Below, piece after piece: positions 2,650 through 20,475 of a stretch of 20,795 nucleotides of DNA. A program made the position numbers and the translations under genes. The notes under the pieces were generated by a model. The model did no database searches. It saw nothing but the letters and a program-made list of their open reading frames with translations, and had not been told where the DNA came from. The stretch's first letter is position 1, and every line of letters begins with the position of its first letter. The stretch comes from a virus (Duplodnaviria > Heunggongvirae > Uroviricota > Caudoviricetes), in IMG/VR virus record IMGVR_UViG_2529292920_000022; one strand, written 5' to 3'.

Positions 2650-3770
2650 AAACCGCCCATTACAGGCGGCTAATTCAGATATTCGCGTATCTGATGTTAC
2701 GCCCCTGACAAAATCCCTTCAAGCACCTGTATGGGTCCACCACATATTGCAATTTTTATTCTCTTTTAAAATATATTCCACGGGCGTCATTAGTGCGAGC
2801 GCCTTGTGGGGTCTTTTGCTGTTATACAGCACCAGATATTCCGCCAGCTTCTGGTTAAATAGCGCCAGATCTTCAAAGAGTAAAATCTCATTAAATTCAA
2901 TAAACTGCTCTCTTAACGTCCGGTTAAAACGTTCACAGATAGCGTTCATTTTTGGCGTGTAGGGATAGGTCCAGAGGTGTTTGATAGCGGCTTCCTGCAG
3001 CGTTTTGTCGAAGTTTCCCAGGAACTCTTTTCCGTTATCTGTGATTATCTGGCTGATACCGACCGGGAACAACCGGGCTGCGCGGCTGAAGAAGTGATTG
3101 ACGATATCACTGTTGAGTGACGGCACAGCCAGCGCCAGCGCGTAATTGCTGCATTCGTCGATCATGGTGATGACATAGCGACGCAGTTCGCCCATTCTGA
3201 GCTCAATGGCGTCCATCCCAATGAGCTCACCTGTCTTTACCGGGCGGTAGTGCTTTGGCCTGCGGGGTTTGGCAGACCGCTTTTTGACAAGCAGTGCCTT
3301 CCCCCGCGATCCCAGACGCACAGGTATCATCCGCATTTTATCATGTGCGGCAGCGATCATTCTGCCGATGGTGGAAACACTCGGACAGGCCAGATAGCGC
3401 TGTTCGCACCAGGGCTTCAGGCGAACAAAAATCTGCTCTTTACCGAGGTTCGGCAGCTCTGTCCTGAGGCGTCGAATCTCTTTCAGCACATCGGGATGCC
3501 AGTGTTTTTTTCGTCGCACCAGAGGTGCCTTACTGTGCGGGATTAGCCCCTCAGGTCCTTCCTTGTTCAGTAACTGACGCCACCAGTAAAGCGTGCGGCA
3601 GGACACGCCAAAGGCTTCAGAAGCTGCAGAAATACCGTGTTTATCCCAGAAGTGCAGAGCCTTCATTCTCATTGTTGCTATATCAGCCATCACTGAAAGC
3701 CTCAACGCATAATCGGCCGTTTGGTAGTACTTAGGATAGCCAACCATCAGATGCTGCATTTGCATAGTGC
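2650..3770 (-). mobile_element. IS481-family-like insertion sequence (single-ORF DDE transposase); boundaries approximate
   Basis: A single minus-strand ORF with an N-terminal HTH and an rve-type DDE core fills the gap between alpA and the next plus-strand gene. Imperfect inverted motifs near both ends (CATCAGAT-containing) are candidate terminal repeats. Exact ends and target-site duplication not resolved. Confidence 0.5.
2719..3765 (-). CDS. DDE transposase (rve / integrase core), IS481-family-like
   Basis: 348-aa ORF. N-terminal HTH (MADIATMRMKALHFWDKHGISAASEAFGVSCRTLYWWRQ) and candidate D, D, E residues (GMDAIEL, ITDNGKEF, NAICERFNRTL). The true start is probably the internal Met near 3690. 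Confidence 0.75.
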   Translation of the reverse strand: MQMQHLMVGYPKYYQTADYALRLSVMADIATMRMKALHFWDKHGISAASEAFGVSCRTLYWWRQLLNKEGPEGLIPHSKAPLVRRKKHWHPDVLKEIRRLRTELPNLGKEQIFVRLKPWCEQRYLACPSVSTIGRMIAAAHDKMRMIPVRLGSRGKALLVKKRSAKPRRPKHYRPVKTGELIGMDAIELRMGELRRYVITMIDECSNYALALAVPSLNSDIVNHFFSRAARLFPVGISQIITDNGKEFLGNFDKTLQEAAIKHLWTYPYTPKMNAICERFNRTLREQFIEFNEILLFEDLALFNQKLAEYLVLYNSKRPHKALALMTPVEYILKENKNCNMWWTHTGA

Positions 3771-3865
3771 AATCTCCCCTTACTTATCCGGAGGCAATTG
3801 CAATATCTCTGTGAACTTACACAGCACCAAAGCGCACACCGAAAAAGCATCGTGCCAGAGTCTAT

Positions 3866-7865: not shown

Positions 7866-8229
7866 AAATGCAGAAATGGCGCTTAGCTCCGCAATCGGAG
7901 AGCAGGTGGCAAAGATTGCTGGTGCTGTGTGGATTCATAACCTTCATTCTACTGGTGAAGAGAAAATGGCAATTCAGACGCCAGAGGGACGCACTATTAC
8001 TACATCTCTGAAGCCGTCAGATGTTTGTGATCTGATTTGCGCATTCATGTACCCAGCAATGAGGACTGTCCACGGCGATAAGTGGAAACTTGCGACAACC
8101 GCTGAATTTGATATGTGGCTAAACAATGATGGCATGCTGACTGATTACGGAATAACCAAGTGGCAGATGCTGGTTAGCCATATCGCAAACGCTATAGACC
8201 ACGTGGGGTACGGTGATGCGAAACATTGA
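7858..8229 (+). CDS. Hypothetical protein (123 aa)
   Basis: Start overlaps the upstream ORF end; its stop overlaps the primase start. Confidence 0.5.
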   Translation: MRENAEMALSSAIGEQVAKIAGAVWIHNLHSTGEEKMAIQTPEGRTITTSLKPSDVCDLICAFMYPAMRTVHGDKWKLATTAEFDMWLNNDGMLTDYGITKWQMLVSHIANAIDHVGYGDAKH

Positions 8230-10972
8230 TCTTATCCGTCAGGTTATCAGTGCGTCTGAAAACAACTGGCCTCATGTGCTGGGCTGCCTGAACATAAATG
8301 TCCCTGACTCTCCGCGCCGTCATGCTCCCTGCCCTGCATGTGGGGGCAAAGATCGATTCCGGTTCGATGACAACGGGCGCGGTAGCTTCATCTGTAATCA
8401 GTGCGGCGCTGGTGATGGGCTGGATTTAATTAAACGCGTAAATAACTGCGACACAACAGAGGCGGCGCTGCTTGCCGCTGATGTTCTGGGTATTGATTAC
8501 CGGACAACGGAAACACCAGAAGCCACCAGCCAGAAACGGGAACAACTGGAAACCGAGCGCCAGCAACGCGAACAGGAGCGCCTGAAAAGGGCGGAGAAGG
8601 ACGAACAACAAAGACGGGATACGTTTTCCCGTCAGTTTGATGACATGCGCAGAAAGGCTGTAAACGGCAAATCTGATTATCTGGTTGCGAAAGGGGTAGG
8701 TGATTTTACATTCCCCGTGTTGCCCGATGGATCTCTGTTGCTGGCGCTGGTGGATAAATCCGGCGCAGTCACAGCAGCACAGACTATTACCTCACATGGT
8801 GAAAAAAGACTCCTGACAGGTTCAGCAAAGCGGGGGGCATATCACGCCATAAACGCACCAGAAACAACACAGAGCATCTTAATCGCAGAAGGGCTGGCAA
8901 CGGCATTATCTGCCCATTTAATTCGTCCAGAGGCGCTGACAGTGGCGGCGATTGATGCCGGGAACCTGTTATATGTCGCCCAGGTACTGCGGGATAAATT
9001 TCCTTCAGCACAAATCATCATTGCTGCGGATAACGACCACAGCGAAGGAAGACAAAACACGGGGAGAATAGCAGCAGAAAAAGCAGCTTTATCTGTTTCT
9101 GGATGGGTGGCATTACCCCCGACAGGTCACAAAGCAGACTGGAATGATTACCACCAAAAACACGGCATTAAATGCGCCACAGAAGCGTTCAATAAGTCAA
9201 TGTACCAACCACAGGGTAATGGCGTGAAACAGGAGCCACAGACCATTGAGGGAAGCGATTTTAAGGTTATGGATACCGACCCACTGAAACCAAGAATAGA
9301 AAGCCGCGAGGATGGTATTTATTGGGTATCTCCGAGAGCTGACAGCCAGAGTGGAGAAATCATCAATAACGAAAGCTGGTTATGTTCTCCGTTAAGCGTT
9401 ATCGGTACTGGCAGAGACGATAAAGACCAGTATCTCATTCTTCGCTGGCTGTCGTTTGGTTCTGAAACGCCGACAACCGCTGCCATTCCACTGGCTGATA
9501 TTGGTGAACGTGAAGGATGGCGCACACTTAAAGCTGGTGGGGTAAATGTCACGACCAAAAGCAGCCTCAGAGCAATACTGGCAGACTGGCTACAACGCAG
9601 TGGCTCTCGTGAATTGTGGCGTGTTGCTCATGCCACTGGCTGGCAATGCGGAGCGTACATCATGCCTGATGGGGAAATCATCGGAACACCTGAAAATCCT
9701 GTGCTGTTCAGCGGGAGAAGCTCAGCCGCAGCCGGATATACCGTCTCAGGGAGCGCGCAAAGCTGGCGTGATAACGTGGCGCGTCTGGCCTTTGGTAACT
9801 ATTCAATGATGACCGGGATCGGCGCAGCACTGGCAGCACCATTGATTGGGCTGGTGGGCGCTGACGGGTTCGGCATTCATTTCTATGAGCAGTCGAGCGC
9901 AGGTAAGACCACCACGGCAAACGTGGCGAGCAGCTTATACGGCAACCCTGATTTACTGCGGCTGACGTGGTACGGAACCGCGCTGGGGCTGGCAAATGAG
10001 GCCGCCGCCCACAATGACGGACTAATGCCGCTTGATGAAGTTGGTCAGGGCGCTGATCCTGTCAGCGTTTCACAGTCTGCCTATGCGTTATTTAACGGTG
10101 TAGGGAAACTGCAAGGCGCTAAAGATGGTGGAAACCGGGATCTAAAACGCTGGCGTACAGTGGCAATCAGCACCGGAGAAATGGATTTAGAAACATTTAT
10201 CGCTACTTCCGGGCGAAAAACCAAAGCCGGGCAACTGGTGCGACTGCTGAATATTCCGTTGAGTAAAGCAGTACGCTTTCACGATTACCAGAACGGAAAA
10301 CAGCACGCAGACGCACTGAAAGACGCTTACCAGCATCACCATGGCGCAGCCGGGCGTGAGTGGATTAAATGGCTGGCAGACCACCAGCAACAGGCTATTA
10401 AAACTGTTCGTGATTGCGAAAGCAGATGGAGAAGCCTGATCCCACCCGATTATGGTGAGCAGGTTCACCGTGTAGCCGCGCGATTTGCCATTCTGGAGGC
10501 CGCATTGTTGTTAGGCGAGGTTGTAACAGGCTGGGATGCTCAGACATGCCGTGATGCGATACAGCACAGCTATAACGCATGGTTGCGCGAGTTCGGCACA
10601 GGTAACAAAGAGCATCAGCAGATTATTGAACAAACGGAGGCATTTCTTAATGCCTATGGGCTTAGCCGTTTTGCACCATTTCCATACAGCCCGGCAGATT
10701 TGCCCATCAAAGATTTAGCCGGATACCGTCAGCGTGGAGAACATGACGAAAGCCCAATGATTTTCTACACATTCCCGGCCACATTTGAAAAGGAGATCGC
10801 ATGTGGTTTCAACGCAAAACAGTTTGCTGAAGTGTTGAAAAAAGCCGGGATGCTAACCCCACCAAACAGCGGTCGTGGATACCAAAGAAAATCACCACGT
10901 ATTCAGGGACGACAAATAAACGTTTATGTACTCAATTACCAGCCAGGAGATTATAACTCATCTGAAGAATGA
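8213..10972 (+). CDS. Primase-helicase (P4 alpha-like: zinc-binding primase region, TOPRIM, C-terminal helicase domain)
   Basis: 919-aa ORF. N-terminal Cys cluster (CPACGGKDRF...CNQCG); TOPRIM-like acidic motifs (IAEGLATALS..., IIIAADNDHSEGRQNTG); Walker A-like GIHFYEQSSAGKTT and Walker B-like LMPLDEVG. The ATG at 8216 is the likely start (8213 is GTG). Confidence 0.9.
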   Translation: MMRNIDLIRQVISASENNWPHVLGCLNINVPDSPRRHAPCPACGGKDRFRFDDNGRGSFICNQCGAGDGLDLIKRVNNCDTTEAALLAADVLGIDYRTTETPEATSQKREQLETERQQREQERLKRAEKDEQQRRDTFSRQFDDMRRKAVNGKSDYLVAKGVGDFTFPVLPDGSLLLALVDKSGAVTAAQTITSHGEKRLLTGSAKRGAYHAINAPETTQSILIAEGLATALSAHLIRPEALTVAAIDAGNLLYVAQVLRDKFPSAQIIIAADNDHSEGRQNTGRIAAEKAALSVSGWVALPPTGHKADWNDYHQKHGIKCATEAFNKSMYQPQGNGVKQEPQTIEGSDFKVMDTDPLKPRIESREDGIYWVSPRADSQSGEIINNESWLCSPLSVIGTGRDDKDQYLILRWLSFGSETPTTAAIPLADIGEREGWRTLKAGGVNVTTKSSLRAILADWLQRSGSRELWRVAHATGWQCGAYIMPDGEIIGTPENPVLFSGRSSAAAGYTVSGSAQSWRDNVARLAFGNYSMMTGIGAALAAPLIGLVGADGFGIHFYEQSSAGKTTTANVASSLYGNPDLLRLTWYGTALGLANEAAAHNDGLMPLDEVGQGADPVSVSQSAYALFNGVGKLQGAKDGGNRDLKRWRTVAISTGEMDLETFIATSGRKTKAGQLVRLLNIPLSKAVRFHDYQNGKQHADALKDAYQHHHGAAGREWIKWLADHQQQAIKTVRDCESRWRSLIPPDYGEQVHRVAARFAILEAALLLGEVVTGWDAQTCRDAIQHSYNAWLREFGTGNKEHQQIIEQTEAFLNAYGLSRFAPFPYSPADLPIKDLAGYRQRGEHDESPMIFYTFPATFEKEIACGFNAKQFAEVLKKAGMLTPPNSGRGYQRKSPRIQGRQINVYVLNYQPGDYNSSEE

Positions 10973-11734: not shown

Positions 11735-12196
11735 ATGGAACTAAAATTTATTGATAACCCTGTGCGATTACAGGCCTTTCTTAACGAGCCAGGCAATACC
11801 GAAAATATTGTTGAGCCGGGGCACACGTACTACATCAAGCCTGATGCGGTATATCTCGGCATCTACGAAGGATTAGTGCTGGCTGGCGTTCATGAAGTGC
11901 GTAACTTCTGGCATAGCGTTGTTGAATGCCATGCGGTGTACGACCCCGGATTCCGTGGTGAATATGCACTGCAAGGGCATCGATTATTCTGCAAATGGCT
12001 TCTCGAAAACTCACCATTCCTTAACAGCATCACCATGGTTCCTGACACCACCAAATACGGACGGGCAATTATCCGTTTGCTTGGCGCTACCCGTGTTGGT
12101 CACCTTGATGATGCTTATATCAGATGTGGTAAACCCGTCGGCGTAACGCTTTATCAGTTAACTCGGCAACAATATAAGGAATTCAGCGAATGTTAA
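11735..12196 (+). CDS. Phage virion-assembly-associated protein, P22 gp14-like by position (tentative)
   Basis: 153-aa ORF translationally coupled (ATGTTAA overlap) to the following three genes. Assigned by position in a gp14-gp7-gp20-gp16-like array; the sequence itself is not diagnostic to me. Confidence 0.4.
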   Translation: MELKFIDNPVRLQAFLNEPGNTENIVEPGHTYYIKPDAVYLGIYEGLVLAGVHEVRNFWHSVVECHAVYDPGFRGEYALQGHRLFCKWLLENSPFLNSITMVPDTTKYGRAIIRLLGATRVGHLDDAYIRCGKPVGVTLYQLTRQQYKEFSEC

Positions 12197-12867
12197 TTAC
12201 CCATATAGCTCATAAACATCTCAATCGTGCCGTATACGAAAAAGGCGGTGATGGTGGTGCCTCTAAAGCTCAGGCGAAGGCCCAGCAGCAGGCAATTGAT
12301 TTGCAGCGCGAGCAGTGGAATACGGTGATGAATAATCTCAAGCCGTATGCAGAAGTCGGATTGCCTGCTTTACAACAACTGCAAGGACTGATGACTCTGG
12401 AAGGGCAGAATAAAGCCGCGAATGATTTCTTTGGTTCTGGTTTATATAAAACACAGGCAGATCAGGCCCGTTATCAGAACCTTGTCTCAGCAGAAGCTAC
12501 CGGGGGGCTTGGCTCAACAGCTACCAGTAACCAGTTATCTTCCATTGCGCCCATGCTTTATAACAATTGGCTCAGTGGGCAAATGCAAAATTATGGAAAC
12601 CTGCTAAATGTCGGGATGAATGCGGCATCAGGGCAGGCAACGGCAGGGCAAAACTACGCCAATAATACCGGACAACTCTTGCAGGGGCTTGGCGCTATTC
12701 GTGCAGGTCAGGCGCAGCAGCCATCCAGTCTTGCGCGTGGTATTGGTGGGGCAGCATCAGGCGCTTTAGCGGGTGCGCAACTTGGTTCCGTTGTTCCTGG
12801 AATAGGAACTGCGGCCGGCGCTATTGGTGGTGGGCTTATTGGTCTTGTTGGGGGGCTTGGATTCTAA
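12190..12867 (+). CDS. Ejection (internal virion) protein, P22 gp7-like
   Basis: 225 aa (P22 gp7 is about 229 aa as I recall). Gln/Ala/Gly-rich with a Gly-rich hydrophobic C-terminus (GIGTAAGAIGGGLIGLVGGLGF). TAATG coupling to the next gene. Confidence 0.55.
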   Translation: MLITHIAHKHLNRAVYEKGGDGGASKAQAKAQQQAIDLQREQWNTVMNNLKPYAEVGLPALQQLQGLMTLEGQNKAANDFFGSGLYKTQADQARYQNLVSAEATGGLGSTATSNQLSSIAPMLYNNWLSGQMQNYGNLLNVGMNAASGQATAGQNYANNTGQLLQGLGAIRAGQAQQPSSLARGIGGAASGALAGAQLGSVVPGIGTAAGAIGGGLIGLVGGLGF

Positions 12868-14288
12868 TGGCGACATGGCAACTTGGCGGGCTGCCTAGCA
12901 TGGCACCGCAAAATGATAATGCTCCTCGTTCTTCCGTTCCTCAGCCTGTGCAGTATCAGCAGCAGCCAAACGTAGGTTTAATGGCGCTACAGGGGCTAAG
13001 AGGCGTTGCTGAGATTAATCAGCAGGCACGTCAACAACAGCGTAAATCAGAGTTTCAGAAAGCATATGCCGGGGCTTTTGAGTCTGGAGACAGAAACAAA
13101 ATGCGCAGTCTTATTTCTGAGTATCCAGAAGAATTTGAAAGCGTTCAGAAAGGGATGGGCTTTATTGATGACGACCAGAGAAATTCTATTGGTCATCTTG
13201 CGACTAGTGCTCAAATCGCATCTTCGCTCGGAACTGGGGCATTTGGAAAATTCATAGCAGATAACGAAGATGAAATGCGTCGCTTGGGAATTTCTCCTGA
13301 GTCTGTTGCCGAAATGCATGTTAATGATCCACAGGGATTCCAGCGGCTTGCTGGTAGTATGGCACTGTTTTCTCTCGGTCATGAGAAGTATTTCGATATC
13401 AAAGATCAAATGGAAGGTCGGGATATTGAGCGAGGCAGGCTGGCAGAGACAATCCGCAGCAATCAGGCTGGCGAAGCACTTCAGGCGAGAGGGCAGGATA
13501 TTAGCCGAGCAAATGCGTTAACGTCAGCATATGCACCAACAGCAGCAATGCAGAATTACAATCAGTACGCTCAAATGTTAAAGGCGGATCCAGAGGGGGC
13601 GGCGGCATTTGCGGCAGCGGCTGGAATTAATACAAACGCCAAAAAATTAATGAGTGTTAGAGAAAACGATGATGGCACTGTCACAAAATACTACACAGAC
13701 GGAAGTGAAGAGCAGGGAAAACTAAACCAGCCAATATCTGGAGATGGGTTTCGTCCAATAGCTTTGCCAACAGCCCAAAAGATCATGGAAAAGTCGCCAG
13801 AAGGGGCTAAAAAAGCTGCTGGATTTGCATACAGGGTTAGGGATGCTCTTGATTCAATAGATACACTGAAAGACCAGCTTAGCCCACAGCGAGTGGCGAT
13901 CATTAATAATGCTTTGGGTAATGGGACGCTGGCTAACTTAACGCTCAGCCCAACAGAGCAGCAATACGTTGTTAATGCTAATGACGCAATAATGGCAATA
14001 CTCCGTCAGGAAACAGGGGCAGCTATCGTACCTGCTGAAATGTCAAAATATTATCAAATGTATTTCCCTCAGCCTGGCGACTCCACAAAAACCATTGATA
14101 CCAAGCGCCGGAAGATGGAAAACCAGTTCAATTCGCTGAAAGCTGCTTCTGGTCGAGCTTATGATGCTTTGCGGGTTATTTCAGCAGTTGACAGAGGAAC
14201 GTCTTCTTCGTCGCAGACATTGCCGCAATCTGAGCAGGTATCACAGCCAGCAGCCAGCAGTAACTTTTCTTCACTATGGGGTGATTAA
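12867..14288 (+). CDS. Ejection protein, P22 gp20-like
   Basis: 473 aa (P22 gp20 is about 471 aa as I recall). Low-complexity Q/A-rich N-terminus. TAATG coupling on both sides. Confidence 0.55.
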   Translation: MATWQLGGLPSMAPQNDNAPRSSVPQPVQYQQQPNVGLMALQGLRGVAEINQQARQQQRKSEFQKAYAGAFESGDRNKMRSLISEYPEEFESVQKGMGFIDDDQRNSIGHLATSAQIASSLGTGAFGKFIADNEDEMRRLGISPESVAEMHVNDPQGFQRLAGSMALFSLGHEKYFDIKDQMEGRDIERGRLAETIRSNQAGEALQARGQDISRANALTSAYAPTAAMQNYNQYAQMLKADPEGAAAFAAAAGINTNAKKLMSVRENDDGTVTKYYTDGSEEQGKLNQPISGDGFRPIALPTAQKIMEKSPEGAKKAAGFAYRVRDALDSIDTLKDQLSPQRVAIINNALGNGTLANLTLSPTEQQYVVNANDAIMAILRQETGAAIVPAEMSKYYQMYFPQPGDSTKTIDTKRRKMENQFNSLKAASGRAYDALRVISAVDRGTSSSSQTLPQSEQVSQPAASSNFSSLWGD

Positions 14289-16393
14289 TGGCTAAAGCAT
14301 GGAAAGATGTTATCGCCTCTCCACAGTATCAGGCGTTAGCACCAGAACAAAAAGCGCAGGCTCAGGAGCAATACTTCAATGAAGTCGTTGCCCCGCAAGC
14401 CGGAGAAAGTGTAGAGCAGGCTAAGCAGGCTTTTTATGCTGCCTATCCACTACCATCAACGAATGAAATAGACCGATCCCAATCAGCAACTCAAAATATT
14501 CAACATACATCATCTGATAATTCTCTTGCGTCAGGGTATGCAAAGTTAGCTACTCAGCAAAGAGAGGGGCTTGAGCGTTCAGCAGAACAGGGAGCCAGTC
14601 TTGGGGCTGCGATGCGCGATGCTATAACAGGCGAAAGCCGAATGACTTCAGAGATGGAGAGACTGCAAAATGTCGCCTCTGCCCCAGAATTGAACTCACT
14701 AAGCATGGATGCCCTAAAGGCTGGATGGTCCCAACTTTTCGGCTCTGACGCGTCTCAGGAAAAGATTCTTCAGGGAATGGGGGCGACATTAAGGCAGGAT
14801 GAGAAGGGGAATACTATCGTTTCTCTGCCATCAGGTGATTATGCCCTGAACAAGCCGGGTTTATCACCGCAAGACCTGACTTCGTTTCTTGCTAATGCGT
14901 TGGCGTTTACACCAGCGGGCAGGGCTGGAACGGTGCTTGGTGCCATAGGAAAATCAGCAGCTACAGATTTAGCACTACAGGGAGCCACCAGCCTTGCTGG
15001 TGGAGAAGATATTGATCCGTTACAAACGGTAATTTCTGCTGGTATTGGTGGTATTGGTAAGGGGCTGGAAAATACAGCGAGTGCGGTTTCGAGGGCTGTT
15101 CGTGGTGATATGTCGCCTGAAGCAAAGGCTGCTGTCGACTTTGCATCGGAAAGAAATCTGCCGTTAATGACCAGTGACATGCTGAAAGATAAAACCTTTA
15201 TGCAGAGTCAGGCTCAGACATTAGGCGAAAGAGTTCCTTTTTTTGGAACCGGTAAGAATCGGCTGAATCAACAACAAGCACGAGAAAATTTAGTCAGAAC
15301 ATTTAGCGATGGTCTGGGTGGCATTTCTGATAAACAGCTTTATGAATCTGCGACTAAAGGGCAACAAAAATTCATTGAGGCAGCAGGAAAGCGATATAAC
15401 CGCATAATTGACGCTATGGGGGATACCCCTGTCGATCTCTCAAACACGGTAAAAGCTATCGACAATCAGATTGCCGTGTTAAGCCGCCCGGGCAAATCTC
15501 AGGATAGAGCCGCGGTAAAAGTCTTGCAGCAATTTAAAGACGATATCACCAGCGGACCAAATGACCTGCGCCTGGCGAGGGAAAACAGAACCGATCTTCG
15601 AAAGCGATTTATTGCGTCATCTGACACTGTTGATAAAGATACGCTCCAGAAAGCCAGCGATATTATCTACAAGGCATATACGGCGGATATGAAAAAAGCC
15701 GTAGCCAAAAATCTTGGAGCAGACGAAGCCATTAATATGGCAAGGGTTGATCGCTCATGGTCTAAATTCAATGACATGATGGGAAGAACGCGCGTTCAAA
15801 AGGCAATAGCCAGCGGCAAGGCCACGCCTGAGGATGTAACAAAACTCGTTTTTAGCCAAAGCCCATCAGAACGTTCTCAGCTTTACAGGCTTCTGGATGA
15901 CAATGGTAGGCAAAACGCACGAGCAGCCATAGTTCAGAATGCTGTAGATAAGGCGACTGATCCGTCTGGAAATATCAGTGTTGAGAAGTTTATTAATGCG
16001 TTACACCGGAACAGGAAGCAATCAGCAACTTTCTTTAAAGGCGTACATGGGAAGGAACTGGACGGCGTTATTAAATACCTCAACGATACAAGACACGCGG
16101 CAAAAGCGAACGTTCAAAACTTAAATGGTCAGCAGCTTTATGGATTGTTAGTTGGTGGTGGCATCATAAACGCAGCAGTATTAGCGGGGATGCTAAAAAC
16201 GGCTGCGTTTGTTGTTCCTGCTGCTGGTGCCGTAGGCGGAGCAGCGAAGGCATACGAAACCCCTGTTATACGAAATGCCTTGTTACGTCTGGCAAATACG
16301 CCAAAAGGTAGCACAGCATATGACAGAGCGATCAGTACGGTCACACAATCGCTCACCAGAGTCGCACAGGCATCACAAAAAGAAGCTCAATAA
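14288..16393 (+). CDS. Ejection protein, P22 gp16-like
   Basis: 701 aa. Ala/Gln/Gly-rich with a C-terminal hydrophobic Gly/Ala segment (LLVGGGIINAAVLAGMLKTAAFVVPAAGAVGGAA). Last gene of the four-gene coupled operon. Confidence 0.55.
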   Translation: MAKAWKDVIASPQYQALAPEQKAQAQEQYFNEVVAPQAGESVEQAKQAFYAAYPLPSTNEIDRSQSATQNIQHTSSDNSLASGYAKLATQQREGLERSAEQGASLGAAMRDAITGESRMTSEMERLQNVASAPELNSLSMDALKAGWSQLFGSDASQEKILQGMGATLRQDEKGNTIVSLPSGDYALNKPGLSPQDLTSFLANALAFTPAGRAGTVLGAIGKSAATDLALQGATSLAGGEDIDPLQTVISAGIGGIGKGLENTASAVSRAVRGDMSPEAKAAVDFASERNLPLMTSDMLKDKTFMQSQAQTLGERVPFFGTGKNRLNQQQARENLVRTFSDGLGGISDKQLYESATKGQQKFIEAAGKRYNRIIDAMGDTPVDLSNTVKAIDNQIAVLSRPGKSQDRAAVKVLQQFKDDITSGPNDLRLARENRTDLRKRFIASSDTVDKDTLQKASDIIYKAYTADMKKAVAKNLGADEAINMARVDRSWSKFNDMMGRTRVQKAIASGKATPEDVTKLVFSQSPSERSQLYRLLDDNGRQNARAAIVQNAVDKATDPSGNISVEKFINALHRNRKQSATFFKGVHGKELDGVIKYLNDTRHAAKANVQNLNGQQLYGLLVGGGIINAAVLAGMLKTAAFVVPAAGAVGGAAKAYETPVIRNALLRLANTPKGSTAYDRAISTVTQSLTRVAQASQKEAQ

Positions 16394-16397
16394 CTGG

Positions 16398-16421
16398 TTA
16401 GCCATGGATGGCTAATTTTTG
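16398..16421 (+). terminator. Candidate terminator between convergent genes
   Basis: Inverted repeat TTAGCCAT / ATGGCTAA followed by TTTTT, immediately after the gp16-like stop. Confidence 0.35.
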
Positions 16422-16831
16422 TTCTTTGCTCTCATCCATAGGTAAAGAAGGGAAAGAACAAGACAAAAAACAGAGAATAGATAACCTACCTCATATGGTG
16501 CGCCAAAAAAATTAGCCATTGATACGGGCAAAAAAGCTGAAGCGATCAAAATTGAAAGGCAAAAAATAAGCCCAGTAATATAGTTTATTAAATTCTTAAA
16601 TGAGAAACGTTTTGCTTGATTTACGGTCTTAACGAACGATCGCTTAACGACGGATAAAAGCAAATAGATGGCGACAGTTGCTAATGCCCCTTTCCACCAG
16701 TCTGGATATAGTTTTGCGACAATCAGACCAAGGAAAACCATGATGACAGCCTGAGCATTCACACCAACCCTCCCTTTAGCTTTGTTTAGAATGGCAATCA
16801 TCATATATCCAAGACATGGCATTTGGTACAT
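16412..16831 (-). CDS. AT-rich integral membrane protein; candidate superinfection-exclusion / moron protein
   Basis: 139-aa ORF with about four hydrophobic helices (VIMVFLGLIVAKLY, ATVAIYLLLSVV, GLIFCLSILIASAFL, LFSVFCLVLSLLYLW). Low GC. Convergent with the ejection operon, the position SieA occupies in P22. Confidence 0.55.
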   Translation of the reverse strand: MYQMPCLGYMMIAILNKAKGRVGVNAQAVIMVFLGLIVAKLYPDWWKGALATVAIYLLLSVVKRSFVKTVNQAKRFSFKNLINYITGLIFCLSILIASAFLPVSMANFFGAPYEVGYLFSVFCLVLSLLYLWMRAKNKN

Positions 16832-17285
16832 AGCTTGGGTCGGGATTTCAAATCCGATCCCCGTTGATGGGGCCGTTACAGTACGCGCATATCCTCTTTA
16901 TGTGAAACAGGAAGATTTTTCTGATATCACTGCCACAGCAAAACACCAATTTCGTGACCAGTACGCGCGCGAGGGGTATCAGTTGCAAAAAATTTTGCAA
17001 CTGCGTCCGACCAGTACGCACACGATGGCGGGGAGCACCATAAAACTGTTCTCTACATAAGACAGAGTGGTGGTGATGTGTTGATTATCGGCGTATATGC
17101 GCACAGGACGCGCTATGACGATGTTTTATGCGGGTACACCAATCACATGTATCTGGTGTGATCAATCGCGTTACATGACATCTCATGTTGTGCTGGTGAT
17201 TATCACGACGTTCTGAATCTGGCCTTTGCCTGATATTTTGCGACAAGTACGCGCGCGTAGCATCGACAGCATACACATTGGATAT

Positions 17286-17486
17286 TCATTTTGTGACCAA
17301 TGCGATAAGTAGCGGGATAAGAATTGATAAAATCAACAGGACGATGATCCACTTTTGATTCTCGTCCATCTTATCTGCTAGGCGACGCTCCATTCCGTGC
17401 ATATCACCGCGAATGGCAATCATCTCATTGCGAACATCCGAGAAGTGGTTGGCTTGATGTTCAATGTGTGGCGTTCTGCCTTTCAT
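17286..17486 (-). CDS. Small single-pass membrane protein (XhlA-like topology)
   Basis: 66 aa: a charged, helical N-terminal part followed by a C-terminal transmembrane segment (WIIVLLILSILIPLLIALV). Confidence 0.4.
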   Translation of the reverse strand: MKGRTPHIEHQANHFSDVRNEMIAIRGDMHGMERRLADKMDENQKWIIVLLILSILIPLLIALVTK

Positions 17487-17567
17487 GTCTGATCCTCACC
17501 TATCGTCACCACCTGATGGTGTATAAAGGTATTAGCCCAAGCAGCTTTCCAATGGGCACTCATGTTT

Positions 17568-19928
<2,361 letters not shown>

Positions 19929-20187: not shown

Positions 20188-20475
20188 ATGATAAAGGACA
20201 GGAAAGCTGAAGAGCTGGAGTCAAAAGGGCTATACCGGAGAGCTGCCGCACGATGGGCAGAAGTCATGATGCTGGCAGATGGCGATAAAGAACGTGAACA
20301 TGCAGCAAACAGACGCTCTGAATGTATCCGTAAGGCGGCACGCCCACCAGCAACTACAGACAGATTCGGAGATTTAAGACAGGCAGTTAAGCGGACTCAT
20401 TCGGCTCTTGGTATGGATGAGGAAGCGAGAGGGTACTTCAGGCGTTATCGCGATAAAGATTGCCAGAGACAGTAA
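20188..20475 (+). CDS. PerC-family transcriptional regulator-like protein
   Basis: 95-aa ORF; the N-terminus MIKDRKAEELESKGLYRRAAARWAEVM matches the PerC/Pch family pattern. TATAAT-like -10 and a GAGAGG RBS lie just upstream, directly next to the iterons. Confidence 0.65.
   Translation: MIKDRKAEELESKGLYRRAAARWAEVMMLADGDKEREHAANRRSECIRKAARPPATTDRFGDLRQAVKRTHSALGMDEEARGYFRRYRDKDCQRQ

Follow-up and report, generated by a model that had tools for sequence, protein, structure and literature searches.

The window analysed here is a stretch of 20,795 nt of viral DNA (IMG/VR record IMGVR_UViG_2529292920_000022). At positions 16412..16831 of its minus strand, the ORF listing gives a reading frame of 139 codons that is convergent with a gp16 homologue (14288-16393, plus strand), the two stop codons being separated by 18 nt. 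The reading frame is a real gene, but 139 aa overstates its length: translation almost certainly starts at the GTG at 16762 and yields 116 aa. The gene and its homologues are called the ORF116 family below. The locus comprises the following features.

16412..16762, minus strand: coding sequence of the ORF116 family, an exchangeable cassette (GTG at 16762-16760, TAG at 16414-16412)
16763..16831, minus strand: 5' leader, corresponding to the first 23 codons of the 139-aa reading, with the Shine-Dalgarno sequence AGGGAGG at 16769-16775
16763..17266, minus strand: upstream flank of the slot, non-coding and conserved (94-97% identity to islands with other cassettes)
17286..17486, minus strand: 66-aa ORF (phrog_6324) with a C-terminal hydrophobic segment, upstream of the slot gene
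16396..16417, no strand assigned: hairpin GGTTAGCCA-TGGA-TGGCTAATT between the convergent stops, followed by a T-run on the plus strand
14288..16393, plus strand: gp16-type ejection (DNA transfer) protein, 701 aa
11735..14288, plus strand: rest of the ejection block
11735-12196, plus strand: gp14-like DUF2824 gene
12190-12867, plus strand: gp7-like gene
12867-14288, plus strand: gp20-like gene

The length of 116 aa is adopted because all divergent homologues open with MN(A/G/Y)Q at the codon matching GTG 16762, the Shine-Dalgarno sequence lies 6 nt 5' of that codon, and DNA similarity begins at 16783 for the Edwardsiella copy and at 16769 for the Yersinia copy. The same GTG also starts unrelated cassettes in related islands, where the same 23 upstream "codons" precede it, and at locus L041 a 2-nt deletion in the leader puts the upstream ATGs out of frame. 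Judged from these comparisons, the leader is probably untranslated. PGAP annotates the gene at 129 or 109 aa. The GC content is 37.9% within 16412-16762, while gp16 and gp20 have 47% and the upstream flank has 46.7%, and the shift falls exactly on the edges of the cassette. Thus, of the low-GC protein of 139 aa with about four helices that had been described in the earlier note, the composition and the four hydrophobic helices stand, and the length is revised.

The facing genes are of the P22 ejection type according to their profile matches (gp7, phrog_598; gp20, PF16928 at 3e-58; gp16, phrog_770 at 2e-161), which confirms the convergence with an ejection operon that the same note had claimed. 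Directly past the gp16 stop lies the hairpin (AGCCAnGGAnGGCT), which is found in all loci and in P22, where it is conserved between gene 16 and sieA. It includes the stop codon of the ORF and marks the 3' boundary of the slot in which the gene resides. It is likely to be the terminator of the ejection operon, and it possibly functions in both directions.

The elements that carry the gene

The window represents an integrative island of about 17 kb, with an integrase, AntA, Ash, a Zn-ribbon/Toprim/DUF927 primase, the gp14-7-20-16 block, the slot, and a PerC regulator. Its landmarks are given below.

1-1260: integrase
8213-10972: primase
11735-16393: gp14/7/20/16 block
20188-20475: PerC-family regulator

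A P22-like prophage was considered and rejected, as there are no capsid, portal, terminase or tail genes in the window. The regulatory and replication genes of the island are P4-like (Ash, AntA and the primase), and an Icd-like gene is present in its relatives. The island lies between yicC and dinD in E. coli 755, and its architecture recurs in Edwardsiella and in several IMG/VR contigs, as well as at loci L005, L016-L021, L031 and L032. By its gene content, it has the appearance of a satellite providing ejection proteins of its own. No description of satellites carrying P22-type ejection genes was found in the literature, and the occurrence of the slot in islands that have ejection-protein genes alone suggests a type of phage satellite not described before.

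Loci with an ORF116 gene are of two kinds, namely complete P22-like prophages and islands devoid of virion genes. Among the former are a Yersinia prophage (L006) and one of APEC O1 (L014), in both of which the gene is found between gene 16 and the tailspike gene. The order in APEC O1 is terminase, portal, coat, gp4, gp10, needle, gp14, gp7, gp20, gp16 and the ORF116 gene, beyond which lie genes for a YafO toxin and ClpP, arc/mnt, ant, and the tailspike gene.

The association with gp16 is very tight. The stop codon of gp16 is 17-21 nt away, in convergent orientation, at 26 of the 27 loci with the gene, and every intact copy is accompanied by a gp16 of the clade found in the window (60-100% identity), which is only about 30% identical to the gp16 proteins of P22 and HS1. 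The exception to this linkage is a single decayed remnant (L015, E. coli O111:NM FWSEC0005, 12001-12390), in which the membrane-protein gene and the PerC gene remain beside ykgL. There, gp16 was lost along with the rest of the island.

The slot past gene 16

P22-like phages have, between genes 16 and 9, a variable "ant moron" that holds sieA, genes of the hkcB/hkcC type and immI (Villafane et al., 2008; PMC2629481). The gene sieA, whose position is between genes 16 and 9, is present in just 22 of 66 P22-like phages (Leavitt et al., 2024; PMC10883804). Given this variability and the patchy presence of sieA, a different small membrane protein at its place is unsurprising in kind, and the ORF116 gene is one more occupant of the region. 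What is new here is the orphan family itself, the definition of the slot at the nucleotide level, and the codon-precise exchange with a SieA gene. In contrast to the ant moron as a whole, its first position behaves here like a defined site for cassettes, whose junctions at the start codon and the terminator are fixed, and which is retained in islands where the remainder of the phage is missing, whether through loss or because it was never present.

The sieA gene of P22 is likewise convergent with gene 16 and ends 23 nt past it. In the APEC O1 copy, the 33-nt leader and the start codon together differ from those of P22 sieA at one position, ggtatcctgc[g/a]caaaactaaggaggttggtGTG, the upstream flanks being ggtatcctgcGcaaaactaaggaggttggtGTG in APEC O1 and ggtatcctgcAcaaaactaaggaggttggtGTG in P22 sieA. 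The positional equivalence to P22 sieA proposed in the earlier note thus holds at nucleotide resolution, for both leader and hairpin, and more strongly than had been suggested. Members of the P22 SieA family and of the ORF116 family both occur in P22-like prophages between gene 16 and the immI/tailspike region, and no SieA match was found among the sampled loci that carry an ORF116 gene.

To survey the slot, viral contigs were scanned, as a scan of genome contigs returned no locus with the family profile and three with the gp16 alignment. The latter alignment found 80 IMG/VR loci, 78 of them assessable, in which the convergent ORF past gp16 was classified. The slot was empty in seven of these, and its main occupants were as follows.

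14 of 78 loci: ORF116-family protein
5 of 78 loci: SieA-family protein
22 of 78 loci, the commonest in the survey: protein of about 106 aa with one transmembrane segment (phrog_10450), as in phage N7 (L008:5902-6222)
about 6 of 78 loci: 62-aa protein with two transmembrane segments (phrog_21338; L104 and relatives)
4 of 78 loci: secreted protein of about 130 aa with N- and C-terminal cysteines (phrog_2651; L040:5124-5560, L042, L078, L080)

None of the slot cassettes matches a PADLOC model. As non-membrane and single-pass proteins are also found in the slot, position alone does not determine function, and the phrog_2651, phrog_10450 and phrog_21338 proteins are candidates for envelope-acting exclusion functions.

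The strongest evidence for a common site comes from loci whose flanks are nearly identical to those of the window. At L041 and L082, where gp16 is 98% identical to that of the window, a 204-aa SieA-family protein is placed on the same Shine-Dalgarno sequence and the same GTG, its gene ends at the same hairpin, and the flanks are 94-99% identical to the window. The assignment of the L041 protein to the SieA family relies on hmmsearch (1.1e-12), on a match to phrog_7745 (4e-4) and on its C-terminal NRYPGEA. At L040 and L042 (gp16 98 and 92% identical, respectively, to that of the window), the slot holds the secreted protein of about 130 aa. For all four loci, homology to the window breaks off at 16411-16413 and sets in again at 16757-16759, so that the swapped segment extends from codon 2 to the stop codon and all three cassettes keep the same Shine-Dalgarno sequence and GTG. 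This exchange between near-identical flanks suggests that the ORF116 gene and sieA are alternative loads of one expression site. The ORF116 gene has the SD-GTG leader and the post-gp16 hairpin and is replaceable between conserved flanks, the three properties of the positional class.

Since gp16 genes that are 92-98% identical bear three unrelated cassettes, the cassette is not co-adapted to a particular gp16. Co-adaptation within the module that the earlier note had proposed together with the ejection operon was therefore rejected.

The SieA-family protein of L041 (L041:5127-5736) and L082 is 21% identical to P22 SieA, and a C-terminal NRYPGEARRARK replaces the FNK-ending motif. It may represent a further SieA type beyond types A to C.

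Upstream of the slot, the neighbours of the ORF116 gene differ between the window, L005, L006 and L014, and the DNA is not conserved between these contexts. An upstream partner gene was considered and rejected, as the 108-aa secreted protein encoded upstream in Yersinia has no counterpart in the window. The 66-aa ORF of the window may be co-transcribed with the slot gene. The promoter of the slot is presumed to lie within 16763..17266 or further upstream. In both the window and APEC O1, no sigma-70 consensus promoter was detected on the right strand upstream of the gene, and expression in the integrated state is for that reason only assumed. A scan of 16300-17800 against Rfam returned nothing but one chance-level match. 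The segment 16832-17285 (about 450 nt) is without an annotated gene, yet it is 94-97% conserved among islands with different cassettes; it might harbor a promoter, a regulatory RNA or the remnant of a gene.

The window carries two IS insertions relative to E. coli 755. One is an IS21-family element at 17707-19606 (istA, 17793-18815; istB, 18880-19542), which splits a 147-aa island ORF located on the same strand upstream of the slot gene and intact at L001:7767-8210. The flanking matches overlap by about 7 bp, consistent with a target duplication.

The protein and its relation to SieA

Four Kyte-Doolittle peaks are centred on residues 31, 58, 94 and 124 (numbering of the 139-aa reading). The AlphaFold2 model, computed from a 7-sequence alignment, is of low confidence (pLDDT 57, pTM 0.39) and contains four helices, at about residues 3-18, 22-48, 55-85 and 90-114, which agree with the hydrophobicity peaks. 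Among 11 family members, the central loop (loop 2) has two to five Lys and Arg residues per sequence and the C-terminal tail one to three, with zero to two in each of the two short loops, which also contain acidic residues. Based on the hydrophobic segments, the modelled helices and this charge distribution, the product is predicted to be an integral inner-membrane protein with four transmembrane helices in an N-in/C-in topology, which would place both termini and the K/R-rich central loop in the cytoplasm. This prediction bears out the multi-pass protein that had been proposed from the sequence.

The most conserved segment of the family, (I/V)VAKLYPDWW, covers the last part of helix 1 together with the first short loop, and its KLYPDWW part is predicted to lie at the periplasmic end of that helix. 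Helix 1 has an invariant Lys and no acidic residue in any member, and the proteins end with ...LYLWxRxKNKN, a few residues past helix 4. Pairwise dN/dS values among family members range from 0.14 to 0.42, with synonymous sites saturated in the deep comparisons, which indicates a real protein under purifying selection; the reading frames are intact down to 34% identity.

The family appears to be confined to enterobacteria. A word-indexed search recovered 22 clusters, all from this group (E. coli, Salmonella, Edwardsiella and Yersinia), and an exhaustive profile search of 1.84 billion representatives only seven, again all enterobacterial, four of which are remote (34-38% identity). Among 5,426 complete E. 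coli genomes, 229 (about 4%), including APEC and O111 strains, carry the gene, and its location is always chromosomal. As tblastn against 50,697 phage records yielded no match, it is known only from integrated elements. A literature search with the protein accessions found nothing.

No family was matched by the protein in Pfam (E<=0.1) or by the gene in PHROGs (E<=0.01), neither the protein nor the family profile had a meaningful match in PADLOC or among PDB sequences, and NCBIfam returned only noise, at 15 bits compared with cut-offs of 200-739. Confident homology to a transporter or a holin, which the earlier note had named as contrary evidence, was thus looked for in Pfam, PHROGs and NCBIfam and not found, and neither these databases nor PADLOC gave a match to a transporter, holin or defence model. 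SMR/EmrE-type transporters with four transmembrane segments have a conserved membrane-embedded Glu in helix 1. ORF116 proteins have no acidic residue there, and the SMR family gave no Pfam match at E<=0.1 and nothing above noise in NCBIfam. Similarly, GtrA was not matched in Pfam. The GtrA-like four-helix flippases of P22-like phages are placed in a gtrABC operon beside the integrase gene, whereas the ORF116 gene is monocistronic beside gp16, with neither gtrB nor gtrC as a neighbour.

SieA resides in the inner membrane, with three helices in type A and four in types B and C, and it carries the conserved cytoplasmic motif FxRYPxEAxxFNK (Leavitt et al., 2024; PMC10883804). It stops DNA injection, and alterations in C-terminal parts of gp16 and gp20 overcome the block (PMC10883804). 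ORF116 shares with types B and C its small size, its predicted inner-membrane character and its four predicted helices. In contrast, proteins of the P22 SieA family (PF26849, phrog_7745) have 164-212 aa, while the ORF116 protein has 116 aa and almost no C-terminal tail, and the conserved KLYPDWW segment of ORF116 is predicted to be periplasmic, while the SieA motif is cytoplasmic. If ORF116 excludes phages, the contact that it makes may therefore differ from that of SieA.

Sequence comparisons between the two families were negative. BLASTP against P22 SieA gave nothing significant. SieA profiles were built from P22, its homologues, the type B protein of HS1, a Morganella protein and the divergent L041 type, and hhalign probabilities for the ORF116 family were 2% against type A, 0.2% against types A and B together, 0.1% against HS1 type B and 0.5% against a broad profile of 18 sequences that included the Morganella protein and the L041 type. 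As a positive control, the type A profile matched type B at 99.5% (E 1.4e-22). A search of 5.8 billion proteins with the SieA profile collected 44 SieA proteins and not one ORF116 member. The family phrog_7745 matches P22 SieA, HS1 SieA and the L041 protein but not the ORF116 gene, and in precomputed Pfam annotations PF26849 is assigned to the SieA matches and nothing to the ORF116 homologues. The RYPxEA core is invariant in the SieA alignment, and the motif or its core is present in every SieA-family protein of the slot; the motif, including RYP, is absent from the ORF116 family, in which the invariant residues R147, Y148, P149, E151, A152 and K157 of SieA have no counterpart. By these sequence criteria, ORF116 is not a detectable member of the SieA family, and homology to the SieA with which the earlier note had compared it finds no support. 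Nor was a sequence relationship or a PHROG match found to other characterised exclusion proteins, which had been proposed for comparison as well.

Candidate functions

The reading that we tentatively favour, with a little less than an even chance, is superinfection exclusion by a functional analogue of SieA, unrelated to it in sequence and expressed as inner-membrane cargo from a prophage or a satellite. The gene would be a low-GC cargo ("moron") cassette in an expression slot that directly follows gene 16 of P22-like elements, and its transcription would run antisense to the late operon, presumably from the integrated element. From the inner membrane, its product would keep an incoming P22-like phage from passing its DNA through the gp20/gp16 conduit. 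Gene structure, membrane character, purifying selection, the identity of the slot and the exchange with a SieA-family gene are shown by the data above; that the gene is expressed in the lysogen, how its product is oriented in the membrane and that it excludes phages are inferred. This reading is favoured by the occupation of the sieA slot, the identity of leader and hairpin, the cassette exchange, the gp16 linkage, the four helices, the constraint on the protein and its moron-like GC content, as well as by the lack of SieA matches at ORF116 loci and of transporter, holin or defence matches. It is weakened by the lack of homology to SieA, the mixed contents of the slot, the predicted periplasmic location of the conserved motif, the missing promoter and the low confidence of the model.

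T4 Imm and HK97 gp15 are small membrane proteins of resident phages that stop DNA translocation across the inner membrane. Their mechanism is the one proposed for ORF116, while the number of helices and the target phages differ, and no sequence relationship was detected (no PHROG match at E<=0.01).

A more specific combination is doubtful. ORF116 would represent a new class of DNA-entry blockers that acts through its periplasm-facing KLYPDWW loop, and would be one allele of a plug-in exclusion slot, with a single shared start codon and terminator, in P22-like prophages and satellite-like islands. The islands would both equip the capsids of a helper with DNA-delivery proteins of their own and bar further P22-like phages from infecting the cell.

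Other functions are conceivable for such cargo. Mobile-element hotspots likewise have a fixed position at which unrelated genes replace each other between conserved flanks. If the slot were a general anti-phage hotspot like those of P2 and P4, ORF116 might be a defence protein that does not block entry, such as a membrane effector of abortive infection that forms a pore or depolarises the membrane when triggered by infection. Several unrelated cassettes, a small multi-pass membrane protein and the presence of the gene in satellite-like islands would all fit. It is nevertheless unlikely, as ORF116 stands alone, lacking both a PADLOC match and any partner or sensor that is retained from one context to the next, and SieA, the sole characterised occupant of the slot, blocks entry (PMC10883804). 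The slot also differs from other mobile-element hotspots in that it lies past a P22-type gene 16 and in that its cassettes each encode one small envelope protein and use a common start codon.

Host-fitness factors are frequent among the products of morons, and the permissive cargo site might as well hold a membrane protein for lysogenic conversion, with a role in envelope stress tolerance, small-molecule transport or colonisation. The frequency of the gene in E. coli genomes, APEC and O111 strains among them, the PerC-family regulator on the same island and the retention of the gene without gp16 at the decayed locus L015 are in line with this proposal. The very tight linkage to gp16 and the sharing of the slot with sieA argue against it, as do the lack of matches to small four-helix families (the Pfam scan at E<=0.1 returned neither SMR nor GtrA) and a helix 1 that has an invariant Lys instead of an acidic residue. 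A host-fitness role thus seems distinctly unlikely.

It is improbable that ORF116 is a true but extremely diverged SieA that has lost its C-terminal cytoplasmic tail. Slot, orientation, leader and terminator are those of sieA, the four helices recall types B and C, and hhalign weakly aligns RFSFKNLINYITGL with KFSPERFENRITDALG immediately ahead of the penultimate helix. That alignment, at a probability of 2%, vanishes with richer profiles (0.2-0.5%), the invariant SieA residues listed above are unmatched in ORF116, and SieA members of 21-26% identity were picked up with these methods.

The small size, the several transmembrane helices and the charged C-terminal tail might suggest a holin, an antiholin or another protein of lysis, which is highly improbable. 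The gene is oriented antisense to the late operon, matches no holin in Pfam or PHROGs and adjoins no endolysin or spanin gene; it occurs in islands without any lysis genes, and APEC O1 and HS-type prophages have their lysis cassette before the terminase genes.

To return to exclusion by a SieA analogue, SieA is the only characterised blocker of the P22-like gp20/gp16 DNA conduit, and its mode of action is not yet understood (PMC10883804). If the proposal is correct, that conduit could be probed independently with a second membrane protein, unrelated to SieA, from the same slot, and the position past gene 16 would be a plug-in site at which exclusion or other envelope genes are swapped with codon precision. 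The slot provides a simple rule for finding more such genes, with at least five cassette types here, four of them without assigned function. Given its presence in about 4% of complete E. coli genomes, the gene may affect the host range of P22-like phages used in typing or therapy.

The island may possess another cargo or defence position. Directly past the integrase gene, a low-GC gene (34-36%) at 1356-2321 on the plus strand codes for a 321-aa protein that has no Pfam family and only a weak PADLOC match (PDC-S31, E 0.002). The second IS of the window (2728-3822, with an rve-type transposase ORF at 2719-3765 on the minus strand), inserted relative to E. coli 755, sits between this gene and the regulatory genes of the island.
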